The notes beneath the pieces were generated by a model. That model did not search any database, was not told where the DNA came from, and worked only from the letters and a program-made list of their open reading frames with translations. From Candidatus Nealsonbacteria bacterium (GTDB lineage: Bacteria > Patescibacteriota > Minisyncoccia > Minisyncoccales > DAOVPY01), in the NCBI GenBank assembly GCA_030628945.1, contig DAOVPY010000002.1, positions 87,831-151,830 on the forward strand: a DNA stretch of 64,000 bases, written 5' to 3'. Below, one piece after another: positions 32,592 to 54,204 of this stretch (position 1 is its first letter; each line of letters starts with the position of its first letter). The translations under genes and the position numbers were made by a program.

Positions 32592-32718
32592 GAGGAATGT
32601 GGTTTCAGGGACATATTGTAAGCGAGGCGAATGAAAATTTTTAGTATGGGGTGGTTGGGTGGGTCTAATTACTAAAAATTTTCATTTGCCGAGCGATATA
32701 AAACCAGCATTCCGAATG
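32592..32718. repeat. GGAATGTGGTTT-type structured intergenic element, copy B
   Basis: About 90% identical by eye to copy C. Nested inverted repeats ggaatgtggttt/aaaccagcattcc and aatgaaaatttttagta/tactaaaaattttcatt. Confidence 0.8.
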
Positions 32719-32723
32719 AATTA

Positions 32724-33812
32724 TTATTGTTTCCGAAGATATTCGGCCGCTTTTTCCGGTTCAATCGTGGAAATTTCCATCATAGTGCCGATTTCAAACC
32801 CGGCCCAGGTTGACGTTTTTGGCAAAATGGTCCAATGCCAATGATAATCAGGATATTTCTTTCCATCGCAAGGCGCGGTGTGAAGATAAAAATTATAAGC
32901 CGGGTCGTTCAATCCCTTGTAAATCTTGCTCAGAGCGTTTTGAAACGCTTGCGCCAGATGTTGTTTTTCTTTTTCTGTAATTTTCTCAAAATAAGGAAGA
33001 TGCTTTTTAGGCGAAATAATAACCTCAAAAGCTCTTTTGGAGGCAAAAGGGCAAATAACCAGGAAATCTTTATTTTCAAAAATTTTCCTTTTTTTGCTTT
33101 TTCTCTCCCATTCACACATTAAACAATAAACACATTTTTTGTGAACCCTGAAATACTTTTTAGAATTGTGAATCGCTTTTTTTAAATCCGTATCAATAAG
33201 AGGGGTGGTAATAATCTGAGAATGAGGATGAACAATTGAAGCGCCGGCTTCTATTCCGTGATTATGAAAAACAGAAATATAATTCACGAATTTTTCCTTC
33301 ATCAGCCATAAATATCTCTCTTGATAAACATCAATCACCTCTTTAATTTGGCTCACCGAGAATTGAGCCATTTGCTTGCTATGCTCCCGGGTAATCACTA
33401 CTTCGTGAAAGCCAACCGCGCTGAGTTTTTCATACAATCCTCCCTCAATATGTTTATCTATTCTGGACCCTGGAACAAAAGCCGGATATTTATTCGGCAC
33501 AACTATGGTAGTCCATTGTCGCGGAACTCCTTCATCAGCTCTAAATTCCTTTTTTTTACCATTATTGAAAACTAAAACAGGTCTTCCCTGACTGGAAATA
33601 TTACAAAAAGGACAAGCGCTTTTGGAAATTTTTTCTATTTTTCTTCTCTCTTTCTTAAATGTCTCCGGCCTCCGAGCCCGACCCGTGGCAATGACAACCC
33701 AATCCTTGCTCGCCAGGTCAAAACGGAGTTCAGATGGAAATTTCGTTTGTTTGAATTTTGAGCTTGATTTGGCATAATTTGGCATAATTTGGATTTTGGA
33801 TTTCTCAATCAT
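32724..33812 (-). CDS. galT: Galactose-1-phosphate uridylyltransferase (HIT family)
   Basis: CPFC zinc site and the HPHSQI active-site motif. The start may be the internal Met at 33785. Confidence 0.8.
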   Translation of the reverse strand: MIEKSKIQIMPNYAKSSSKFKQTKFPSELRFDLASKDWVVIATGRARRPETFKKERRKIEKISKSACPFCNISSQGRPVLVFNNGKKKEFRADEGVPRQWTTIVVPNKYPAFVPGSRIDKHIEGGLYEKLSAVGFHEVVITREHSKQMAQFSVSQIKEVIDVYQERYLWLMKEKFVNYISVFHNHGIEAGASIVHPHSQIITTPLIDTDLKKAIHNSKKYFRVHKKCVYCLMCEWERKSKKRKIFENKDFLVICPFASKRAFEVIISPKKHLPYFEKITEKEKQHLAQAFQNALSKIYKGLNDPAYNFYLHTAPCDGKKYPDYHWHWTILPKTSTWAGFEIGTMMEISTIEPEKAAEYLRKQ

Positions 33813-44771: not shown

Positions 44772-45275
44772 TTATCTTGGTAAAACTTCAATCTTCTGCC
44801 CCTCTTTGACCTTCACAATGGCTTTTTTGTATCCCTTTTTCCAGCCTGTAATTCTTCCCAACCGCCTATGACGTCTATGAACGTTGATAATTCTAACGCC
44901 AATAACGTCTACATTATAAAGACCTTCAACTGCTTTTTTGACTTCAATCTTGTTGGCTCTGGGCAAAATCTTAAAAGTATATTGGTTCTTCGCGACTAAA
45001 TCCGTTGCTTTTTCGGAAACATGGGGCGATTTTAAAACTCGATAAGCCGTACCCGAAATTTTTGCGCGCGGTTTTGAAACTTTCGGCTTTACCCTGTTAA
45101 ATTGCTTTGCGCCAGCTTCGCTGGATTTAACAGGGTGAATTTCTTTTCTCTCTTCAACCGCCTTTTCTTTTTTTATTTTTCTTGGTTTTTCCTCAACTCT
45201 AATCTTAGGGGCTTTTTTCTCCTCTTTTGGCTTTTCCTCTTTCTTCTTTTTTCTGAAAAAATCAAACAAACTCAT
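44772..45275 (-). CDS. rplW: 50S ribosomal protein L23 with ~75-aa Lys/Glu-rich N-terminal extension
   Basis: VLKSPHVSEKATDLVAKNQYTFKI...KIEVKKAVEGLYNV. Confidence 0.9.
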   Translation of the reverse strand: MSLFDFFRKKKKEEKPKEEKKAPKIRVEEKPRKIKKEKAVEERKEIHPVKSSEAGAKQFNRVKPKVSKPRAKISGTAYRVLKSPHVSEKATDLVAKNQYTFKILPRANKIEVKKAVEGLYNVDVIGVRIINVHRRHRRLGRITGWKKGYKKAIVKVKEGQKIEVLPR

Positions 45276-45994: not shown

Positions 45995-46132
45995 ATGACA
46001 ATAGAAATAACCGAACAAGCGAGAGGCGCGTTGTTTAAAGTAATAGCGGAAGGCATGCCCGAGAAGTTAGGAATGTCTGAAGAGGAGCGCATAACTCTTG
46101 GGCTGGAACTTTCGCAGAAGCCAAAAAAGTGA
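45995..46132 (+). CDS. Small protein (45 aa) of the antisense cassette
   Basis: MTIEITEQARGALFKVIAEGMPEKLGMSEEERITLGLELSQKPKK. AGGAGG lies 8 nt upstream of the ATG, with its own promoter and terminator. Confidence 0.5.
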   Translation: MTIEITEQARGALFKVIAEGMPEKLGMSEEERITLGLELSQKPKK

Positions 46133-46161
46133 AAAAGTAGGCAATCGGTCCTTCGGGACAA

Positions 46162-46211
46162 GGATATAATTCTCACTTTTAGTGATTGTAATTATATCCC
46201 TTTTTATTTTC
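46162..46211 (+). terminator. Intrinsic terminator of the antisense cassette
   Basis: ggatataatt(tcact ttt agtga)aattatatcc stem, then CTTTTTATTTT. Confidence 0.6.
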
Positions 46212-46252
46212 AAATTTTATTTTCAAATAATTTCTACAAACTTTTAACGGGG

Positions 46253-46281
46253 TTGACAAACATAATATAATTTGTTATGAT
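46253..46281 (+). promoter_or_regulatory. Promoter P2, identical copy of P1, pointing into antisense rplC
   Basis: Second copy of the 47-bp repeat (46253-46299). Confidence 0.5.
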
Positions 46282-46399
46282 AATTTCAGGAGGTAAAATT
46301 TATTGAAAGGAAAAATGTAATAAATAAGAGTGCCGTCAAAGGAGGTTAGCAATGCCACAGAGGGTTGGCAAAACAAAACCAGGGCGGCGCTTTTTTTTA

Positions 46400-47421: not shown

Positions 47422-48621
47422 CTATTTTATAATTTTGGTGACTACTCCGGCTCCAACTGTCTTTCCCCCCTCTCTGATGGCAAATCTCTGTTTTTCCTCA
47501 AGGGCAACCGGCGCAATCAATTTAACTTTTAAATTAACAGTGTCTCCCGGCATAACCATTTCCGTGCCTTCGGGCAAAGTGACATCGCCGGTCACGTCAG
47601 TGGTCCGAATGTAAAACTGAGGCTTGTATCCCGCGAAAAACGGAGTATGGCGGCCTCCTTCCTCTTTACTCAAAATATAAATTTCTCCTTCAAATTCAGT
47701 GTGAGGGGTGATTGAACCGGGTTTTGCCAAAACTTGGCCTCTTTCCACTTCTTCTTTCTTAAATCCTCTTAAAAGAATACCAACATTGTCTCCTGCCCTT
47801 CCCTCATCCAATATTTTATTAAACATCTCAATGCTAACAGCCGTAGTTTTCTTGGTTGGCCGCAATCCTATTAATTCCACCTCTTCATTGGCATGGACTA
47901 TTCCTCTTTCAACTCTCCCCGTGGGAACGGTTCCTCTTCCGGCAATAGAAAAGACATCCTCAATAGCCATTAAAAAGGGCTTGTCTATGTCCCGTGTCGG
48001 CTCTGGAATATGCTCATCCACGGCTTTCATCAACTCAAAAATCGGTTTGGCGACTTCGTCGTCTGCTGTTTTCGCATCTATGGCCTTTAGGGCAGAACCC
48101 CTGATTATAGGAATCTTATCCCCGGGATAATTATATTTCTTCAAAAGCTCCCGCACCTCGGATTCCACTAAATCAATAATTTCCGGGTCGTCCACCATAT
48201 CGCACTTATTCAAAAAAACCACTAATGAAGGCAAACCCACCTGGCGCGCCAGCAAAATATGTTCTCTGGTTTGGGGCATTGGCCCGTCCGGCGCAGAAAC
48301 CACTAAAATCGCGCCGTCCATCTGAGCCGCGCCGGTAATCATATTCTTGATATAGTCGGCGTGGCCCGGGCAATCAATATGCGCGTAATGCCGCTTTTCG
48401 GTCTCGTATTCCAAATGAGCGACATTAATGGTCAAGCCGCGCGCTTTTTCCTCGGGCGCCGAATCAATCTGGTCCACGCTTTTCTCGCTGCATTTCCAGC
48501 CCTTTAACTTAAAGACGTGGAGAATAGCCGCGGTGAGCGTGGTTTTGCCATGGTCAACATGACCAATGGTGCCGATATTAAGATGAGGTTTCCCTCTCTC
48601 AAATTTTTCTTTCTCTGCCAT
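47422..48621 (-). CDS. tuf: Elongation factor Tu
   Basis: [27 protein letters not shown]. Confidence 0.98.
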
Positions 48622-48716
48622 AATAAATTATGAAACTTGAAACTTGAAACTTGAAACTTAATTAAAAGGTTACAGGTTTCAGGCTGCAGATTTCAAAAAT
48701 TTGTTAATATGTTTTT

Positions 48717-48745
48717 ATTCTATTAAAACTAAAAAAAAATGTCAA
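48717..48745 (-). promoter_or_regulatory. tuf promoter candidate
   Basis: Minus strand TTGACA, 17 nt, TAGAAT. About 95-nt leader containing a heptamer-repeat hairpin. Confidence 0.5.
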
Positions 48746-48841
48746 CCTTTATATTTATAATATAATTATACTAAATTATAGTTAAATGGGCAAGCCCTGT
48801 TAAATGCCACTTCGCGGCAATTTTGCGTGTAGCAAAATTAT

Positions 48842-49105
48842 TTAACAAGGCAAGTCCTCTATCTTCAATGGTTCGTTCTTTAGTCCTTCTGGCAACTGCT
48901 CATTATCTTGGTCTTTTTTAATTTCCCCGAGATTATTAGATTTATCCAAAATTTTTTTATAGTCCTCAAATTTGAGCACTGCCAACTCTGGCTTTCCGTT
49001 TTCCACAATAATAAGTCTGCCTTTATCTTTCTCTATTAAATTCTTGATTTCATCTAATTCCATGAATTTTAATTTTACCTTAGCAAACTCCTTCCAAAAA
49101 ATCAA
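48842..49105 (-). CDS. Phd/YefM-like antitoxin-domain protein (no adjacent toxin)
   Basis: GRLIIVENGKPELAVLKFEDYKKIL resembles the Phd/YefM N-domain. The last codons and the stop come from a palindromic element. Confidence 0.4.
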   Translation of the reverse strand: MIFWKEFAKVKLKFMELDEIKNLIEKDKGRLIIVENGKPELAVLKFEDYKKILDKSNNLGEIKKDQDNEQLPEGLKNEPLKIEDLPC

Positions 49106-49124
49106 ACTATTTAAATCTTAGAAA

Positions 49125-49496
49125 TTACTTTTGGTCCTCAAATTTCGGCGCTTTCCCTTCTTTGACTAATTTTTCTAATTCCTCAAGAGACCTTTCGTAA
49201 GACGTTCCTCTTGAACCCAAAGCGGTTTTTGTTAATATCTCTGTGATTCTTTTATCTATCTTCTGCCAATCCTCAAACGCGACACCCATTTTCTTCATTT
49301 TTTCTCGCATCAACTCCTCAAATCTCTTTTCTTTCTCAAGCCCTTCTCTTTCCTTTGCTTCTTTGTTCACTTGCCTCCAAACAGAAAAATCCAGTTCCTC
49401 AAAATCTTGAATACTCATCTTCCTTAATTCTTCTACATTTAATATCTTTTCTTTTTCTTCTTCAACTTTCGGTTCTCTTTTTTCTATTGATGGCAT
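49125..49496 (-). CDS. Hypothetical acidic protein (paralogous 5' end with 50588-50911)
   Basis: MPSIEKREPKVEEEKEK...; shares its upstream 30 nt and N-terminus with the other copy. Confidence 0.45.
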   Translation of the reverse strand: MPSIEKREPKVEEEKEKILNVEELRKMSIQDFEELDFSVWRQVNKEAKEREGLEKEKRFEELMREKMKKMGVAFEDWQKIDKRITEILTKTALGSRGTSYERSLEELEKLVKEGKAPKFEDQK

Positions 49497-49561
49497 AATT
49501 TTTATAATTTTTTATTGATATTGATATTAAACCCGACCTTTTAAAAATTTTAAACTTCTAA

Positions 49562-50209
49562 TTACATTTTAGATAGACTCTTCTTTAGCGCTTCTTGCAA
49601 TGCTAATGATATAATCTCTTCTAATAACGAGTAATCATGTTTATCGGCAAGTTGCATTGCTCTGGTATAACGTTCTCTGTCTTTTTTAATTTCAACTTTA
49701 ATTTCTAAAAGCGGAAGTCCCAATTTCAAAAAAATAAGATTGGTTAAAAGTCGCGCTGTTCTGCCGTTATAGTCATTAAAAGGATGTATCCAAACAAAAC
49801 GATGCTGTGCCCAACTAGTTAAGGATACAATTTCTTTAAGATATTTATCCACTTCTGTTTTTGGGGGAATATGTTTTAACCTCTCATTCAAATCATCGCA
49901 AAATTGTTTTATTAAAATCGGCACTTTATAAAATTTTGGCGGGTGATAACCGGAAATCTCTACTTCAATTTTTCTGAATTTTCCTGCCCATTTTGGAAAA
50001 ATCCAGGCAAAAGATTTTTTATGGATAGACAAAATCATTTCGGAAGAAATTAAAAAATCCTTTTTTGATAAAATTTTTATAAACTTTAATCCCCTTTTCA
50101 CCCCTTCGCTTTCTAATTTTACTAATTTAGAACGAGAAACAATTCCAAACTTTGTCTCCTTGAAATTGGTAGCGTCTTTTGGTTTTGTAGAATTTTTCTT
50201 TTTTGGCAT
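49562..50209 (-). CDS. Fic/Doc-family protein (toxin candidate)
   Basis: Fic motif variant HPFNDYNGRTAR (consensus HxFx[DE]GNGRxxR, with Tyr replacing the first Gly). Confidence 0.8.
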   Translation of the reverse strand: MPKKKNSTKPKDATNFKETKFGIVSRSKLVKLESEGVKRGLKFIKILSKKDFLISSEMILSIHKKSFAWIFPKWAGKFRKIEVEISGYHPPKFYKVPILIKQFCDDLNERLKHIPPKTEVDKYLKEIVSLTSWAQHRFVWIHPFNDYNGRTARLLTNLIFLKLGLPLLEIKVEIKKDRERYTRAMQLADKHDYSLLEEIISLALQEALKKSLSKM

Positions 50210-50210
50210 T

Positions 50211-50429
50211 TTACTTTGATTTTAATATCTTCTTAATATCCTTGCGGCTTATATTCTCGCCCTCAAGTTTCATTGTCCGAAAAATCACTTCTGGAACTTG
50301 TTTATTGAAAAATTTCTCTTTTTCTGCTTGAGAAAGTTTCAAAAAATTATACAAAAGAAAAGCCTGCGCAAGCTCTCTGCGCTTTTGCGATTGACTCTTT
50401 TTAATAATTTTAATTTCAGATTTTTTCAT
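50211..50429 (-). CDS. FicA/VbhA-like antitoxin
   Basis: 72 aa. Contains TMKLEG, which matches the inhibitory helix motif [ST]xxxE[GN]. Its stop lies 1 nt before the Fic ATG. Confidence 0.55.
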   Translation of the reverse strand: MKKSEIKIIKKSQSQKRRELAQAFLLYNFLKLSQAEKEKFFNKQVPEVIFRTMKLEGENISRKDIKKILKSK

Positions 50430-50587
50430 CTTGTAAACTTCTCCTAAAAAATCAAATCAAATTTCTATACAACAACAGAAATGTTTAACTTACGATGTTA
50501 AACATACCGATGTTTAAAAATCATTTCTCGCCCTCATCCTTGCCGCACGCTCAAATTGCCCATCACGTCTCCTAAAAAATCACTTAA

Positions 50588-50911
50588 TTAATTTAGGCCT
50601 TTGGTCATTTTGGCAAAAAGTTCGCGAAGTTCTTCGTGATCAGCAAAACTTTCACCTTCTATATTCAACTCGTCAGTTACATCCATCACTTCCAGCCCCT
50701 GCTCTGTAATAGTCCAAAGGCCGCCATCCCTTTTTTTGTAACGCTTAATACCTTCCTCTATTTGCTCTCGGGAAAGCCCAAATCTTTTCACAACCGGCAA
50801 AGAGAGAATTTCTTCAATGTTTACTTCCTCTAATTCTTTTTTCTTTTCTTCTCCTTGTTCCCCTTCTTTCTTTTCGATTACTGGTTTTCTTTTTTCAATT
50901 GATTCTGGCAT
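50588..50911 (-). CDS. Hypothetical acidic protein (paralogous 5' end with 49125-49496)
   Basis: MPESIEKRKPVIEKKEGE... Confidence 0.45.
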   Translation of the reverse strand: MPESIEKRKPVIEKKEGEQGEEKKKELEEVNIEEILSLPVVKRFGLSREQIEEGIKRYKKRDGGLWTITEQGLEVMDVTDELNIEGESFADHEELRELFAKMTKGLN

Positions 50912-51018
50912 AATTTTTATAGTTTTTTATTGATAAAATTTTAAACCCGACCTTTTTATCTACTATTTTTATAGTATCTAAAAATAGCATTATGGTCAAA
51001 TAAACTTTGGGGTTTTAG

Positions 51019-51146
51019 CGAAGAATGTGGTTTTTGGGATAAATTGTAAGCGAGGCTAATGAAAATTTTTAGTATGGGGTGGTCTGGGTGGGTCTATTAC
51101 TAAAAATTTTCATTTGCCGAGCGATATAAAACCATATTCCGAGCGA
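51019..51146. repeat. GGAATGTGGTTT-type structured intergenic element, copy C
   Basis: Abuts the fusA stop codon; near-identical to copy B. Confidence 0.8.
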
Positions 51147-53255
51147 TTACCGGCGTTTGCCTTCCGCGATTTCCCGGGCAATGTTGCCCGGGACTTCCTC
51201 ATATTTGTCAAATTCCATAGTAAAGGTTCCTCTGCCCTCTGTAAGAGAGCGGAGCGAAGTGGCGTAGCCGAACATCTCTGCCAAGGGAACCTTGGCGTCA
51301 ATCACTTTCAAATTCAAGCGGTCGCTTGTTTCTTCTATTTTGCCGCGCCGCGCGCTCAAATTGCCCATCACGTCTCCTAAAAAGTTTTCCGGGACAATTA
51401 CTTCCAGTTTCATAATCGGTTCCAAAAGAATCGGCTTGGCTCTTTTTGTCGCGCTTTGCAATGCCTGGGAACCGGCAATTTTAAAAGCGATTTCCGAAGA
51501 ATCAACTTCATGGAAAGAGCCATCATATAAAGCAACGCTCATATCTATCAATGGATAGCCGGCAACCACGCCTTTTAACATTGCCTCTTTAATTCCTTTT
51601 TCAACAGCCGGAATAAACTCCTTGGGAATAATTCCGCCTTTAATTTCGTCAATAAATTCAAAGCCCTGTCCTCTTTCTTTTGACTCAACCCTGAGCCAGA
51701 CATGGCCGTATTGGCCCCTGCCTCCTGACTGGCGAATATATTTTCCTTCGGCTTCGGCTTCTGTTTTTATCGTCTCTTTGTAGGCAACCTGGGGCCTGCC
51801 CACGCTCGCTTCAACTTTAAATTCTCTTTTCATTCTGTCCACTAAAATATCCAGATGAAGTTCGCCCATTCCGGAAATAATGGTTTCTCCCGTATCAGGG
51901 TCGCCTTTTATTCTGAAAGTCGGGTCTTCCTCGGCCAAACGATGAAGAGCCATGCCCATTTTTTCCTGATCTGCTTTTGTTTTCGGCTCAATGCGAATAG
52001 CAATAACCGGCTCAGGAAAAGTAATTTCTTCCAGAACAATCGGCACGCTGTCCGGGTCGCATAATGTATGGCCTGTGCTGGTATTTTTGAGGCCCACGGT
52101 AGCCGCGATGTCGCCGCTAAATAATTCATCCACCTCTTCTCTTTCAGCGGCATGCATCCTTAAAATCCTGCCTAAACGCTCTTTCTCTCTGGTGGTGGTA
52201 TTCAGGATATAAGAACCCTTGCTTAACGTTCCGGCATAAACCCTAAAATAAGTAAGGGCTCCCACATAAGGATCTGTGGCAACCTTGAAAGCCAGCGCGG
52301 TGAACGGCTCGCTGTCATCGGATTTCCTGCTTATTTCTTTGCCTGTTTTTGAATCAACGCCGATAATCGCCGGCAAGTCAACAGGGCTGGGAAGGTAATA
52401 AACAACTCCGTCCAGCAAAGGCTGGACTCCTGTATTTTTCAAAGCGCTCCCGCAAAAAACCGGAATAAGTTTGTAATTTATGGTTGCTTGTCTTAAAACC
52501 CGTCTTAAATCCTCAATGGAAATTTCTTCGCGCGCCAGATATTTTTCCAGCAAATTTTCGTCTTCCGCAGCGATTTTCTCAACCATTTTGTCCCGCCATT
52601 TATGCGCTTTTTCCAATAAGCCAGAAGGGATTTCTTCTAATTTTACTTTCTCACCCAAATTGCCTTCAAATTTCAGCGCTTTCATAGAAAACAAATCAAC
52701 CACTCCGCTTAAATTCTGTTCTTCTCCAATTGGAATCTGCACGGCGCAGGCGTTCGGAGAAAGTTTCTGGACAATGGAATTAAAACTCTTTTCAAAAGAG
52801 GCGCCTATTCTGTCCAATTTATTGATAAAACATATTCTTGGCACCTTAAACTTATCTGCCTGTCGCCACACGGTTTCTGATTGCGGCTCTACTCCGGCAA
52901 CGCCGTCAAAAACAACTACGGCGCCGTCCAGCACTCTAAGCGACCTCTGAACCTCAACGGTAAAATCAATATGGCCGGGTGTGTCAATAATGTTAAATCT
53001 ATGCTCGTTTGTTTTTTCTTTGGTTAAATATTCTTCCGGCGACCAAAAGCATGTTGTTGCCGCGGAAGTTATGGTAATCCCCCGCTCTCTTTCCTGCTCC
53101 ATCCAATCCATAATCGCTTTTCCTTCATGCACCTCGCCGATTTTGTGGGAAATCCCTGTATAAAAAAGCACCCGTTCAGTCACGGTTGTTTTCCCTGCGT
53201 CAATGTGCGCTATAATGCCAATATTTCTGTATTTTTCTATTGGATACTTTCTCAT
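51147..53255 (-). CDS. fusA: Elongation factor G
   Basis: [21 protein letters not shown]; 702 aa. Confidence 0.98.
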
Positions 53256-53323: not shown

Positions 53324-53788
53324 TTATCGGGCGAAGTGGGCAAAGGCGCGGTTCGCTTCCGCCATTCTGTGGGTATTTTCTTTTTTCTTTACCGCGGAGC
53401 CGGTATTGTTTGAGGCGTCAATTAATTCCTGGGCTAATTTTTCCTTCATCGGCTTGCCCTTTTTTGCTCTGCTTGCCTGAATAAGCCAGCGAATAGCCAA
53501 AGTCATTCGCCTCTCTCCTTTTACTTCCCGCGGCACCTGATAAGTGGCGCCTCCCACTCTTTTTGATTTCACTTCCAACACAGGTCCCGCGTTTCTCAAA
53601 GCCAAATCAAAAACCTCCAAGACATCTTTTTTTGTTTTTTCTTTAATAATGTCAAAAGCGCTGTAAACAATTTTTCTTGCCGCGTTCTTTTTGCCGCGCT
53701 CCATAATCCGGTTGATAAATCTGGCAACAGTGATGTTGTCATAAACCGGATCGGGCTGAATTATGTGTTTTTTTATTTTTTTCGGCAT
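53324..53788 (-). CDS. rpsG: 30S ribosomal protein S7
   Basis: PDPVY...; C-terminal [18 protein letters not shown]. Confidence 0.95.
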
Positions 53789-53790
53789 AG

Positions 53791-54204
53791 TTATTTTTGT
53801 CGTTTGGTGCCGTATTTGCTTCTCTGCTGCTTCCTTCCCTCCACTCCGCCGGTGTCTAATTTTCCGCGCACCACATGATATCTTACTCCGGGCAAATCTT
53901 TCACTCTTCCCCCTCTAAGCAAAACAACCGCGTGCTCTTGCAGATTATGTCCTTCCCCGGGAATATAAGCCGTCACTTCCATTCCGTTGGTAAGCCGGAC
54001 CCGGGCCACTTTTCTCAAAGCTGAATTCGGTTTTGTGGGAGTAACGGTAAAAACCTTAAGGCAAACTCCCCTTTTAAAGGAAGAAAAATATTTCCGGGGC
54101 TGGTTCTTCAAAACATTAAACCCAAAACTCAAAGCCGGCCCCTTAACCGGCTTTTTCATTTTCTTCCTGCTTTTTTTCATCAATTGATGAATGGTCGGAC
54201 ACAT
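53791..54204 (-). CDS. rpsL: 30S ribosomal protein S12
   Basis: PTIHQLMKK...[31 protein letters not shown]. Confidence 0.95.

Follow-up and report, generated by a model that had tools for sequence, protein, structure and literature searches.

The str operon on contig DAOVPY010000002.1 of a Candidatus Nealsonbacteria bacterium contains five open reading frames (ORF1 to ORF5) between fusA and tuf, the genes encoding elongation factors EF-G and EF-Tu, and one of them, ORF3, encodes a Fic-domain enzyme. We analyzed this fusA-tuf spacer within a 64,000-nucleotide (nt) stretch of the contig (hereafter, the window), in whose coordinates positions are given unless a locus name precedes them. The data are best explained, with a probability of roughly 0.7, by a spacer made up of three layers, i.e., a resident gene (ORF5), a horizontally mobile FicA-Fic cassette (ORF2-ORF3), and local orphan ORFs (ORF1 and ORF4), with no coupling between Fic and EF-Tu to be read from their position. 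The non-random association with fusA and tuf is that of ORF5, and it is new.

The spacer measures 2,525 nt from the fusA stop codon to the tuf start codon and holds five minus-strand ORFs in the same orientation, giving the minus-strand series rpsL, rpsG, fusA, ORF1, ORF2, ORF3, ORF4, ORF5, tuf, rpsJ, and rplC (Table 1). Independent gene calls on the source metagenome contig (ENA ERZ23498683, scaffold_23) match this order, and every element listed in the initial annotation, including the five ORFs, lies where that annotation had placed it. It had described the spacer as an inserted toxin-antitoxin (TA) island; extra DNA is indeed inserted in the str operon and ORF2 and ORF3 do form a pair, but the two labels fit only part of the spacer. 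GC content is 0.29-0.37 in the island versus 0.44-0.51 in fusA/tuf.

Distribution and age of the Fic cassette

Relatives of the Fic gene were sought in one genome per species, which yielded 114 species, nearly all of them from the candidate phyla radiation (CPR), and 80 loci were kept. The Fic pair adjoins fusA in one of these loci and lies between ftsA and ftsZ in two, and the remaining 77 have no fusA, tuf, or ftsZ within 8 kb. Immediate neighbors of the pair belong to 61 Pfam families downstream and 56 upstream, each of which appears three times at most. Of the relatives on usable contigs, the eight closest (76-87% identity) occupy at least five different sites, namely fusA-tuf (2), ftsA-ftsZ (2), dcd-gatB (1), and others (3). 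At the ftsA-ftsZ sites (L014:7784-9600 and L015:7786-9599; also L004 and L008), FicA-Fic ends 16-29 nt before the ftsZ start codon. Our literature search turned up no paper that connects Fic TA modules with CPR.

The sole other cassette sited between fusA and tuf is that of a Nealsonbacteria metagenome-assembled genome (loci L010/L011/L013). Its companions differ from those in the window: a 78-amino-acid (aa) unannotated ORF and a YafQ-like toxin gene lie upstream of the pair, and DUF4258/DUF2283 genes lie downstream. The two islands have DNA homology only in FicA-Fic, ORF5, and the tuf leader.

To date the cassette relative to its flanks, we compared synonymous divergence (dS, NG86) and third-position identity, for which the chance expectation is 0.25-0.31. 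Between the window and L010, dS was 1.46-1.95 for rpsL, rpsG, fusA, tuf, rpsJ, and rplC (third-position identity, 0.51-0.57) and 2.64 for ORF5, an equally AT-rich control (0.44), versus 0.59 for FicA (0.74) and 0.81 for Fic (0.68). Likewise, between L014 and L015, dS was 2.19 for FtsZ (0.47) versus 0.76 for Fic (0.71). Because dS values of 0.59-0.81 in the cassette are far below the 1.46-2.64 of its flanks, the Fic cassette postdates the host split and has spread by horizontal transfer. The cassettes of the window, L010, L014, and L015 are about equidistant whatever their site (dS 0.71-0.86); between the window and L014 or L015, no shared housekeeping gene was available for a comparison of host divergence. 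Third-position identity is raised uniformly across the cassette, and it is not raised in the fusA 3′ and tuf 5′ ends, where recombination tracts extending from the cassette were sought; thus, transfer by means of long flanking homology is not supported.

These data bear on the possibility of one ancestral island, i.e., a single insertion before the window and L010 genomes diverged, followed by vertical descent and turnover of accessory genes. The two genomes are sisters in neighbor-joining (NJ) trees of EF-G and of four genes (EF-G, EF-Tu, S10, and L3), amino acid identity of Fic (82%) is about that of EF-G (83%), and the order FicA-Fic ... ORF5 is equal in both. In contrast, dS of FicA/Fic is well below that of the flanks, composition-matched ORF5 included, and the ftsA-ftsZ cassettes of other genomes are equally close. 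Moreover, L099, which forms one clade with the window and L010 in the four-gene tree, has an empty site, and the internal branches of that tree are very short and carry no support values. We therefore consider a single ancestral island quite unlikely.

The same distribution speaks to functional coupling, according to which Fic would modify EF-Tu or EF-G, be co-regulated with its target, and serve as a built-in translation brake. Doc, an enzyme of the Fic fold, phosphorylates EF-Tu, and Phd is the antitoxin of Doc. The class II Fic protein SoFic AMPylates EF-Tu in its switch-I region and inhibits translation (preprint 10.64898/2026.07.09.737422). These two precedents make a reaction between Fic and EF-Tu biochemically plausible, and several observations fit such a role: the weak matches of ORF3 to SoFic hidden Markov models (HMMs; see below), the presence of the cassette at fusA-tuf in two divergent genomes and directly upstream of ftsZ, an abundant-GTPase gene, in two others, and the orientation of the cargo with the operon, which makes read-through transcription likely. 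However, tuf lies within 8 kb of the pair in none of the 79 species loci other than the one that adjoins fusA, the neighbors of the cassette are heterogeneous, the cassette is younger than its flanks, and 23 of 25 clade loci read fusA-ORF5-tuf or carry other cargo, without Fic (see below); in addition, SoFic differs in architecture, with an N-terminal inhibitory helix and a winged helix-turn-helix (wHTH) domain. Coupling is thus very unlikely: EF-Tu could be a Fic target, yet the location gives no evidence for it. The initial annotation had raised a functional link of the Fic gene to fusA and tuf as one possibility, and such a link is not upheld by synteny or by dS. Among the options it offered (coincidence, an addiction module protected by essential neighbors, or a regulator of translation factors), coincidence fits the Fic cassette best, and is better described as use of a permissive, recurrent insertion site.

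ORF5 and the fusA/ORF5 junction

ORF5 is not cargo but an undescribed conserved gene, fixed upstream of tuf across a CPR clade; for Patescibacteria, our literature search gave no paper on a gene in the fusA-tuf interval. A word-index search returned only eight relatives (71-76 aa), and a metagenome scan with the ORF5 family alignment added 20 more loci, with homologs 34-64% identical. Since the relatives in the family alignment are 71-76 aa long, the true start of ORF5 is the ATG at 49063. Together, these searches define 25 distinct loci (the window, L010, L093, L095, L096-L115, and L116), and the relatives carry the labels Nealsonbacteria, Minisyncoccales, or Parcubacteria. As far as contigs reach, the ORF5 homolog lies directly upstream of tuf in 25/25 distinct loci, and fusA is immediately upstream of ORF5 in 20 of the 23 loci with a visible fusA 3′ end. 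In 20 of the 22 relatives in which it was measured, the distance from the fusA stop to the ORF5 start was 1-133 nt, with seven relatives at exactly 1 nt, and in L093 and L095 the ORF5 homolog is the sole gene between fusA and tuf. No Fic gene occupies this position in 23/25 loci, which runs counter to a pairing of the Phd-like gene with the Fic gene, as hinted at in the initial annotation. The lineages bearing ORF5 are deeply diverged (L3 identity to the window, 56-77%), and the ratio of nonsynonymous to synonymous divergence (dN/dS) of ORF5 relative to L010 is 0.15.

Different DNA has entered between fusA and ORF5 in different genomes. The cargo measures 2,083 nt in the window (ORF1, FicA-Fic, and ORF4), 2,052 nt in L010, and 826 nt in L116 (L116:1092-1919), where it encodes a 23S_rRNA_IVP-family protein and an ASCH-domain protein, unrelated to the other cargo. 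In L107 (374-997), whose contig does not extend to fusA, ORF5 is directly preceded by an unrelated 207-aa ORF. The fusA/ORF5 junction has thus taken unrelated cargo at least three times. Other junctions hold cargo as well, i.e., HicAB and MNT/HepT genes between rplC and rplD in L010 and a YafQ-type pair between rpsJ and rplC in L095, and all cargo is co-oriented with the operon.

In the window, the gap between rplC and rplD (46019-46399, 381 nt) shows reversed GC skew and no recognizable gene. Its only ORF (45 aa, plus strand) was among the gene calls of the source contig and matches no Pfam family. The gap may be a scar of lost cargo, because the same junction in L010 and the rpsJ-rplC junction in L095 hold TA genes.

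We propose that ORF5 would be ancestral in the clade, at the promoter-distal end of the rpsL-rpsG-fusA block, with tuf then having its own promoter-like sequences. The fusA/ORF5 junction would tolerate co-oriented inserts and would have received a mobile two-gene Fic cassette in the window genome, so that the place beside tuf would come from a site between the tuf promoter and the str genes at which insertions are tolerated.

The 29 aligned ORF5 sequences comprise a conserved N-domain of 38 aa (MDLNEIKxLIExDGGKxIIVENGxPVxVVxSFExYKK), a variable linker of low complexity (about 15-60 aa), and a nearly invariant tip, E[EP]LK[IL]EDLP[FLV], at the C-terminal end or at most 2 residues away from it. 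As the initial annotation had stated, ORF5 resembles Phd/YefM: PhdYeFM_antitox (PF02604) matched 24/29 family members at E ≤ 0.01 (best, 2.7e-6), with no competing family, and one homolog (P0124) has a precomputed PF02604 label. However, ORF5 scored only 20.2-20.8 bits, under the gathering score of 29.8, and all scores seen were below that threshold; the match of the window ORF5 covers HMM positions 13-54 and lacks 1-12 (β1). An AlphaFold2 (AF2) model built from eight sequences (predicted local distance difference test [pLDDT], 64) has an αββα topology followed by disorder, and its best Foldseek match, RelB antitoxin, was not significant (E 0.9). A comparison with YefM and Phd sequences by hhalign gave a probability of 9-19%, in the expected ββα region, and the family profile had no meaningful match among PDB sequences.

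Could ORF5 then be an ordinary type II antitoxin, whose toxin (of Doc, YoeB, or RelE type, or Fic) is elsewhere or lost, and whose position is a frozen accident? The PF02604 matches are what such a gene would give, an N-domain followed by a disordered C-terminus is typical of Phd/YefM, and TA cassettes accumulate around ORF5. Against this, no toxin gene follows ORF5 in the 25 distinct loci, where tuf is next wherever the contig continues, and none of the 36 small ORFs in the window belongs to the Doc, YoeB, or RelE family or is recognizable as another TA gene. In addition, the position is kept across 56-77% L3 identity with a dN/dS of 0.15, the tip is invariant despite linker changes of 15-60 aa, which is the behavior of a core gene and not of an orphaned addiction gene, and the family scores, missing β1, hhalign probability, and Foldseek result are all weak. 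An ordinary antitoxin is decidedly unlikely. Compared with Phd/YefM (PF02604), ORF5 has an N-domain that aligns to the helix, two β-strands, and helix of HMM positions 13-54 and a similar general plan, in which a disordered C-terminal binding region follows a small N-domain, but it differs in scoring below threshold, in lacking β1 and a cognate toxin gene, in being fixed in a core operon, and in its EDLP[FLV] tip.

The C-terminus of ORF5 has a counterpart in SSB, whose tip (DDDIPF) likewise follows a variable disordered linker and ends in acidic-acidic-[I/L]-P-[F/L]. Outside the ORF5 family, a C-terminus of the form [DE][DE][ILMV]P[FLIVMC] occurs in one of 4,562 ORFs (1.2 Mb of CPR sequence), and that ORF is a CPR SSB (L024:9431-10021; Pfam SSB, 137.6 bits) ending in PDDIPF. 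SSB-Ct acts in protein docking (PMC5872125). ORF5 lacks the oligonucleotide/oligosaccharide-binding (OB) fold of SSB, and likeness over a 5-residue tail is perhaps convergent or meaningless, so we treat this similarity, seen at the sequence level, as a lead and not as a result.

In outline, ORF5 would combine a small N-domain related to Phd/YefM, a disordered variable linker, and an acidic-hydrophobic tip resembling a docking peptide. In archaea and eukaryotes, tails of stalk proteins recruit translation factors. A more specific reading, tentative and on balance unlikely, is that ORF5 might be a clade-wide part of the str operon, a domesticated antitoxin derived from Phd/YefM and probably dimeric, whose tip would dock on a conserved partner (EF-G/EF-Tu or readers of SSB tails) and provide a layer of translation-factor regulation in ultra-small CPR bacteria.

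The Fic enzyme and its partner

ORF2 and ORF3 are a genuine Fic pair of class I organization, with a FICD-like core, as the gene content, motifs, and fold make directly visible. The assignment of ORF3 to the Fic family in the initial annotation is borne out by a score of 54.4 bits against Pfam Fic (PF02661; gathering score, 24), and 120/120 ORF3 homologs among the matches listed carry PF02661. The active-site motif, HPFNDYNGRTAR (residues 142-153), conforms to the family motif HPFxDYNGRxAR, in which H, F, D, N, G, R, and R are invariant in 16/16 aligned members. More specifically, the first Gly of the canonical GNG nest (HxFx[D/E]GNGRxxR) is replaced by an invariant Tyr, and the catalytic residues are kept. 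The Fic gene is under purifying selection (dN/dS 0.09-0.15).

The AF2 model of ORF3 (pLDDT, 88; predicted TM-score [pTM], 0.83) has the all-helical Fic fold. Foldseek placed FICD first (E 6e-10; TM-score, 0.71-0.73; root mean square deviation, 1.9-2.0 Å over 184 residues), followed by EfFic, EcFicT-EcFicA, and VbhT-VbhA; the model had 87 PDB matches at E ≤ 0.001, and 50/50 among the matches listed are Fic proteins. A profile of 16 family members likewise matched human FICD (E 3e-22) more strongly than VbhT (E 5e-5). PADLOC related ORF3 to the candidate defense family PDC-S04 (PDLC04839; E 3.2e-30), with residues 4-205 aligned to positions 9-203 of the 205-position profile, and gave a partial match to SoFic (E 6e-17); the NCBIfam SoFic model scored 24.5 bits versus a cut-off of 550.

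The Doc branch was considered for ORF3 and rejected. Its motif is HxFx[D/N][A/G]NKR, in which Lys stands for the second Gly and which goes with kinase chemistry. Because the motif of ORF3 reads N-G-R, with a Gly invariant in the family, versus N-K-R in Doc, ORF3 does not belong to this branch, and the association with Doc in the initial annotation gives way to the sequence D-Y-N-G-R.

ORF2 carries the motif TMKLEG (residues 52-57), which fits the Fic-inhibitory [ST]xxxE[GN], and its end is separated from the Fic ATG by a gap of 1 nt. The same arrangement recurs in 70 of 75 testable species loci, where a small ORF that contains [ST]xxxE[GN] and is 43-101 aa long (mostly 55-70 aa) abuts the Fic gene; variants of the partner motif are RT[TM][KR]LEG and TTKxEN. 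Glu56 is the sole invariant non-Met column in the ORF2-family alignment (A11), and ORF2 has no Pfam or NCBIfam match at E ≤ 1. The Fic enzyme with a FicA-type inhibitory partner reported in the initial annotation is present.

By analogy with VbhA/VbhT and EcFicA/EcFicT, Glu56 of ORF2 (in RTMKLEG) would be placed in the Fic nucleotide pocket and prevent ATP from binding productively. Upon loss of ORF2 or an excess of Fic over it, e.g., after transcription shut-off or phage infection, Fic would AMPylate an essential target and arrest growth, and FicA-Fic would thus act as a TA or abortive-infection-type module. We infer this inhibition, as well as the AMPylation chemistry, toxicity, and trigger, from VbhTA, FicTA, and FICD.

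The pair can be compared with several known systems. With VbhT/VbhA of Bartonella and EcFicT/EcFicA, it shares a separate upstream small ORF with [S/T]xxxE[G/N] and a minimal Fic protein of ~200 aa, and the solved complexes (3shg and 5jff) match ORF3 structurally with a probability of 1.0. Unlike VbhT and EcFicT, the ORF3 family has Tyr for the first Gly of GNG and a conserved N-terminal segment; its core is nearer to FICD/HYPE than to VbhT, and ORF2 has no detectable sequence homology to VbhA/FicA. FicT toxins are described as hitting GyrB and ParE (PMC7479194). FICD/HYPE, the metazoan class II AMPylase/deAMPylase of BiP, is the nearest solved structure to ORF3 (27% identity; flap and motif align). 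It carries its inhibitory helix in cis, together with tetratricopeptide repeat (TPR) and transmembrane parts, whereas here the helix has a separate gene and the enzyme is a bare 215-aa core. SoFic, from Shewanella (class II; a PADLOC defense model exists), is a Fic-domain enzyme like ORF3, but it has 361-432 aa, with an N-terminal dimerization/inhibitory helix and a C-terminal wHTH, none of which is present in ORF3. Doc/Phd of phage P1 likewise combines a Fic-fold gene and a Phd-like gene in one region, with EF-Tu as the Doc target; here, the motif is N-G-R, Fic has its own FicA-type partner, and ORF5 is separated from Fic by ORF4.

The N-terminal segment of the Fic family, STKPKxATxFKETxFGI (ORF3 residues 1-24), is strongly conserved (T8, P10, K11, T14, T19, and G22 are invariant). 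It lies outside the region aligned with FICD, is modeled as disordered (pLDDT 44-61), and might serve in auto-modification or in target recognition.

A perfect inverted repeat, ATGTTTAAC-N7-GTTAAACAT (50481-50505), lies ~50-75 nt upstream of the ORF2 start and is a candidate operator of the Fic cassette. Among the regions upstream of FicA, no palindrome is common to the loci, and this repeat occurs only in the window.

Several points weigh against our interpretation of the spacer as a resident gene, a mobile TA-type cassette, and local orphans. The ORF2-family profile matched none of VbhA, EcFicA, or FICD (inhibitory helix) among PDB sequences. To our knowledge, all characterized Fic enzymes have Gly or Ala where this family has Tyr, and activity or substrate could differ as a result. 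For a toxin, the Fic family is also unusually well conserved, with 53-58% identity between CPR classes and, between L014 and L015, a higher identity (84%) than that of the adjacent FtsZ (68.5%), which could reflect a housekeeping regulatory role and not a selfish TA system. As to the age of the cassette, NG86 dS values are approximate in AT-rich genes. Two of the eight close relatives have the cassette directly upstream of ftsZ, and the occurrence of two abundant-GTPase genes, ftsZ and tuf, beside it may not be pure chance. Finally, in an NJ tree built without bootstrapping, the window and L010 pair only weakly as sisters, and a single old insertion with later replacement of the cassette may have taken place.

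Orphan ORFs, flanking features, and implications

Table 1. Features of the fusA-tuf spacer and neighboring genes (window coordinates)
Feature	Position	Strand	Basis or content
rpsL	53791-54204	-	ORF
rpsG	53324-53788	-	ORF
fusA (EF-G, 702 aa), upstream spacer boundary	51147-53255	-	Pfam GTP_EFTU, EFG_III, EFG_IV, and EFG_C on the identical source-contig gene
Repeated intergenic element (~125-137 nt), directly 3′ of the fusA stop	51010-51146	-	Stem-loop; second copy
Duplicated module, copy 1: ~45 nt upstream (AAAAGGTCGGGTTTAA...TATAAAAATT) plus first ORF1 codons	50860-50958	-	Direct repeats D1 and D2
ORF1, acidic orphan and lineage-specific cargo (107 aa, isoelectric point [pI] 4.9)	50588-50911	-	No homolog
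ORF1-ORF2 spacer	50430-50587	-	Two TGATTTTTTAGGAG copies; inverted repeat
ORF2, FicA-type antitoxin/inhibitor (72 aa, pI 10.3)	50211-50429	-	Inhibitory-motif Glu56 in RTMKLEG
ORF3, Fic-domain enzyme (215 aa, pI 9.9)	49562-50209	-	Pfam Fic, family motif, AF2 fold
Duplicated module, copy 2, before and into ORF4	49451-49543	-	Direct repeats, alignment A7
ORF4, orphan highly charged protein (123 aa, pI 5.6, ~49% charged)	49125-49496	-	No homolog
ORF5, clade-conserved str-operon gene (73 aa from conserved ATG)	48842-49063 (longest ORF 48842-49105)	-	29-sequence alignment A8
ORF5-tuf spacer	48622-48841	-	Two sigma-70-like promoters and tuf leader
tuf (EF-Tu, 399 aa), downstream boundary	47422-48621	-	ORF and source-contig gene call

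ORF1 and ORF4 flank the Fic cassette. A word-index search of 5.8 billion protein clusters returned only ORF1 itself, a full HMMER scan of 1.84 billion representatives returned only ORF4 itself, and neither had a usable match in Pfam, NCBIfam, PADLOC, or PHROG. The two share ~45 nt of upstream DNA and their ~30 first codons at 73-77% identity and then diverge; the 16-mer AAAAGGTCGGGTTTAA occurs exactly twice in the window. BLASTP of full-length ORF1 versus ORF4 was not significant, and only the 5′ DNA is common to both. On this sequence comparison, ORF4 appears as a partial paralog of ORF1 at its 5′ end. At its end, 5 nt before the ATG, the shared upstream module has a TATAAA-like box but no recognizable Shine-Dalgarno (SD) sequence, so that leaderless expression of ORF1 and ORF4 is possible. 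Both would have arisen or diverged locally with the duplicated upstream and 5′ coding module.

It is somewhat unlikely that ORF1 and ORF4 are not genes but chance ORFs in an AT-rich, purine-skewed insert, possibly of decayed earlier cargo. They have no homologs, are of low complexity and rich in K/E, and lack an SD sequence, and four of five changes in an ORF1 strain variant (in L003) are nonsynonymous, falling in codons 9-17. In contrast, their frames are long (107 and 123 codons) for DNA of 30-39% GC with frequent stops, lie on the operon strand, were both called on source contigs, and share the conserved upstream module with its TATAAA-like box, and ORF4 is 100% conserved in three samples.

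The spacer between ORF1 and ORF2 contains two exact copies of the SD-like TGATTTTTTAGGAG (50441-50454 and 50569-50582), 128 nt apart, the first followed by a 9-codon mini-ORF (MGNLSVRQG); a degenerate third copy lies ahead of ORF5 (49091-49104). A 15-nt exact match to the 3′ end of the L010 YafQ-like gene and a 9-aa similarity to the C-terminus of its product (FLNIGMFNI versus FLNIGTHEI) are not significant, and the spacer may, as a weak suggestion, be a relic of a YafQ-like toxin gene or of a decayed TA pair.

Upstream of tuf, the promoter-like sequences TTGACA-17-TAGAAT (48745-48717) and TTAACA-17-TATAAT (48803-48775) each match the consensus at 11/12 positions, and comparable TTGAC[AT]-N17-TAnAAT sites occur in 12/20 other ORF5-tuf spacers. 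The tuf leader (48622-48716) has no SD-like sequence before tuf and carries four tandem AGTTTCA heptamers just before the ATG, which are able to pair with an upstream UGAAAU...CUGAAAC (minimum free energy, -15.9 kcal/mol; z = -2.9). Over ~110 nt of the leader region, conservation relative to L010 is 78-86%.

Directly 3′ of the fusA stop lies a repeated element with an AT-rich stem of 17-21 bp and a C-rich loop of 23 nt (ACCCACCCAGACCACCCCA); its arms (51054-51074 and 51098-51118) are 95% complementary, with a folding energy of -31.8 kcal/mol. A second copy (32592-32715; 92% identity) lies 3′ of the stop codon of a 362-aa gene (32724-33812), and no copy was found in 120 other loci. This element could be a terminator, a small RNA, or a miniature inverted-repeat transposable element (MITE)-like element; a search for structured RNAs in the 44-55 kb region gave no Rfam match at E ≤ 0.1. 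Farther along the operon, rplW (44772-45275) encodes an L23 homolog with a Lys/Glu-rich N-terminal extension of ~70 aa. A simple greedy gene call over the 64 kb shows the window to be gene-dense, with nearly all real genes on the minus strand.

These results have consequences for annotation and for the biology of the clade. The Fic gene between fusA and tuf should be annotated as part of a mobile class-I-type Fic TA or candidate defense cassette and not, by position, as an EF-Tu regulator. This cassette occurs widely in CPR bacteria, in which such systems are often assumed to be scarce, and the invariant Tyr in the anion nest of its enzyme defines a distinct subfamily worth characterizing. In this clade, intergenic junctions of the str and S10 operons have repeatedly taken up accessory cargo in the orientation of the operon (Fic, YafQ-type, DUF4258/DUF2283, HicAB, MNT/HepT, and IVP/ASCH), which may be the reason that translation genes of Patescibacteria are flagged by island predictors (PMC12455944). 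Lastly, ORF5 is an unannotated, bipartite gene under purifying selection between the genes for EF-G and EF-Tu, and is a candidate translation-associated or antitoxin-derived factor in organisms that are not yet growable alone.

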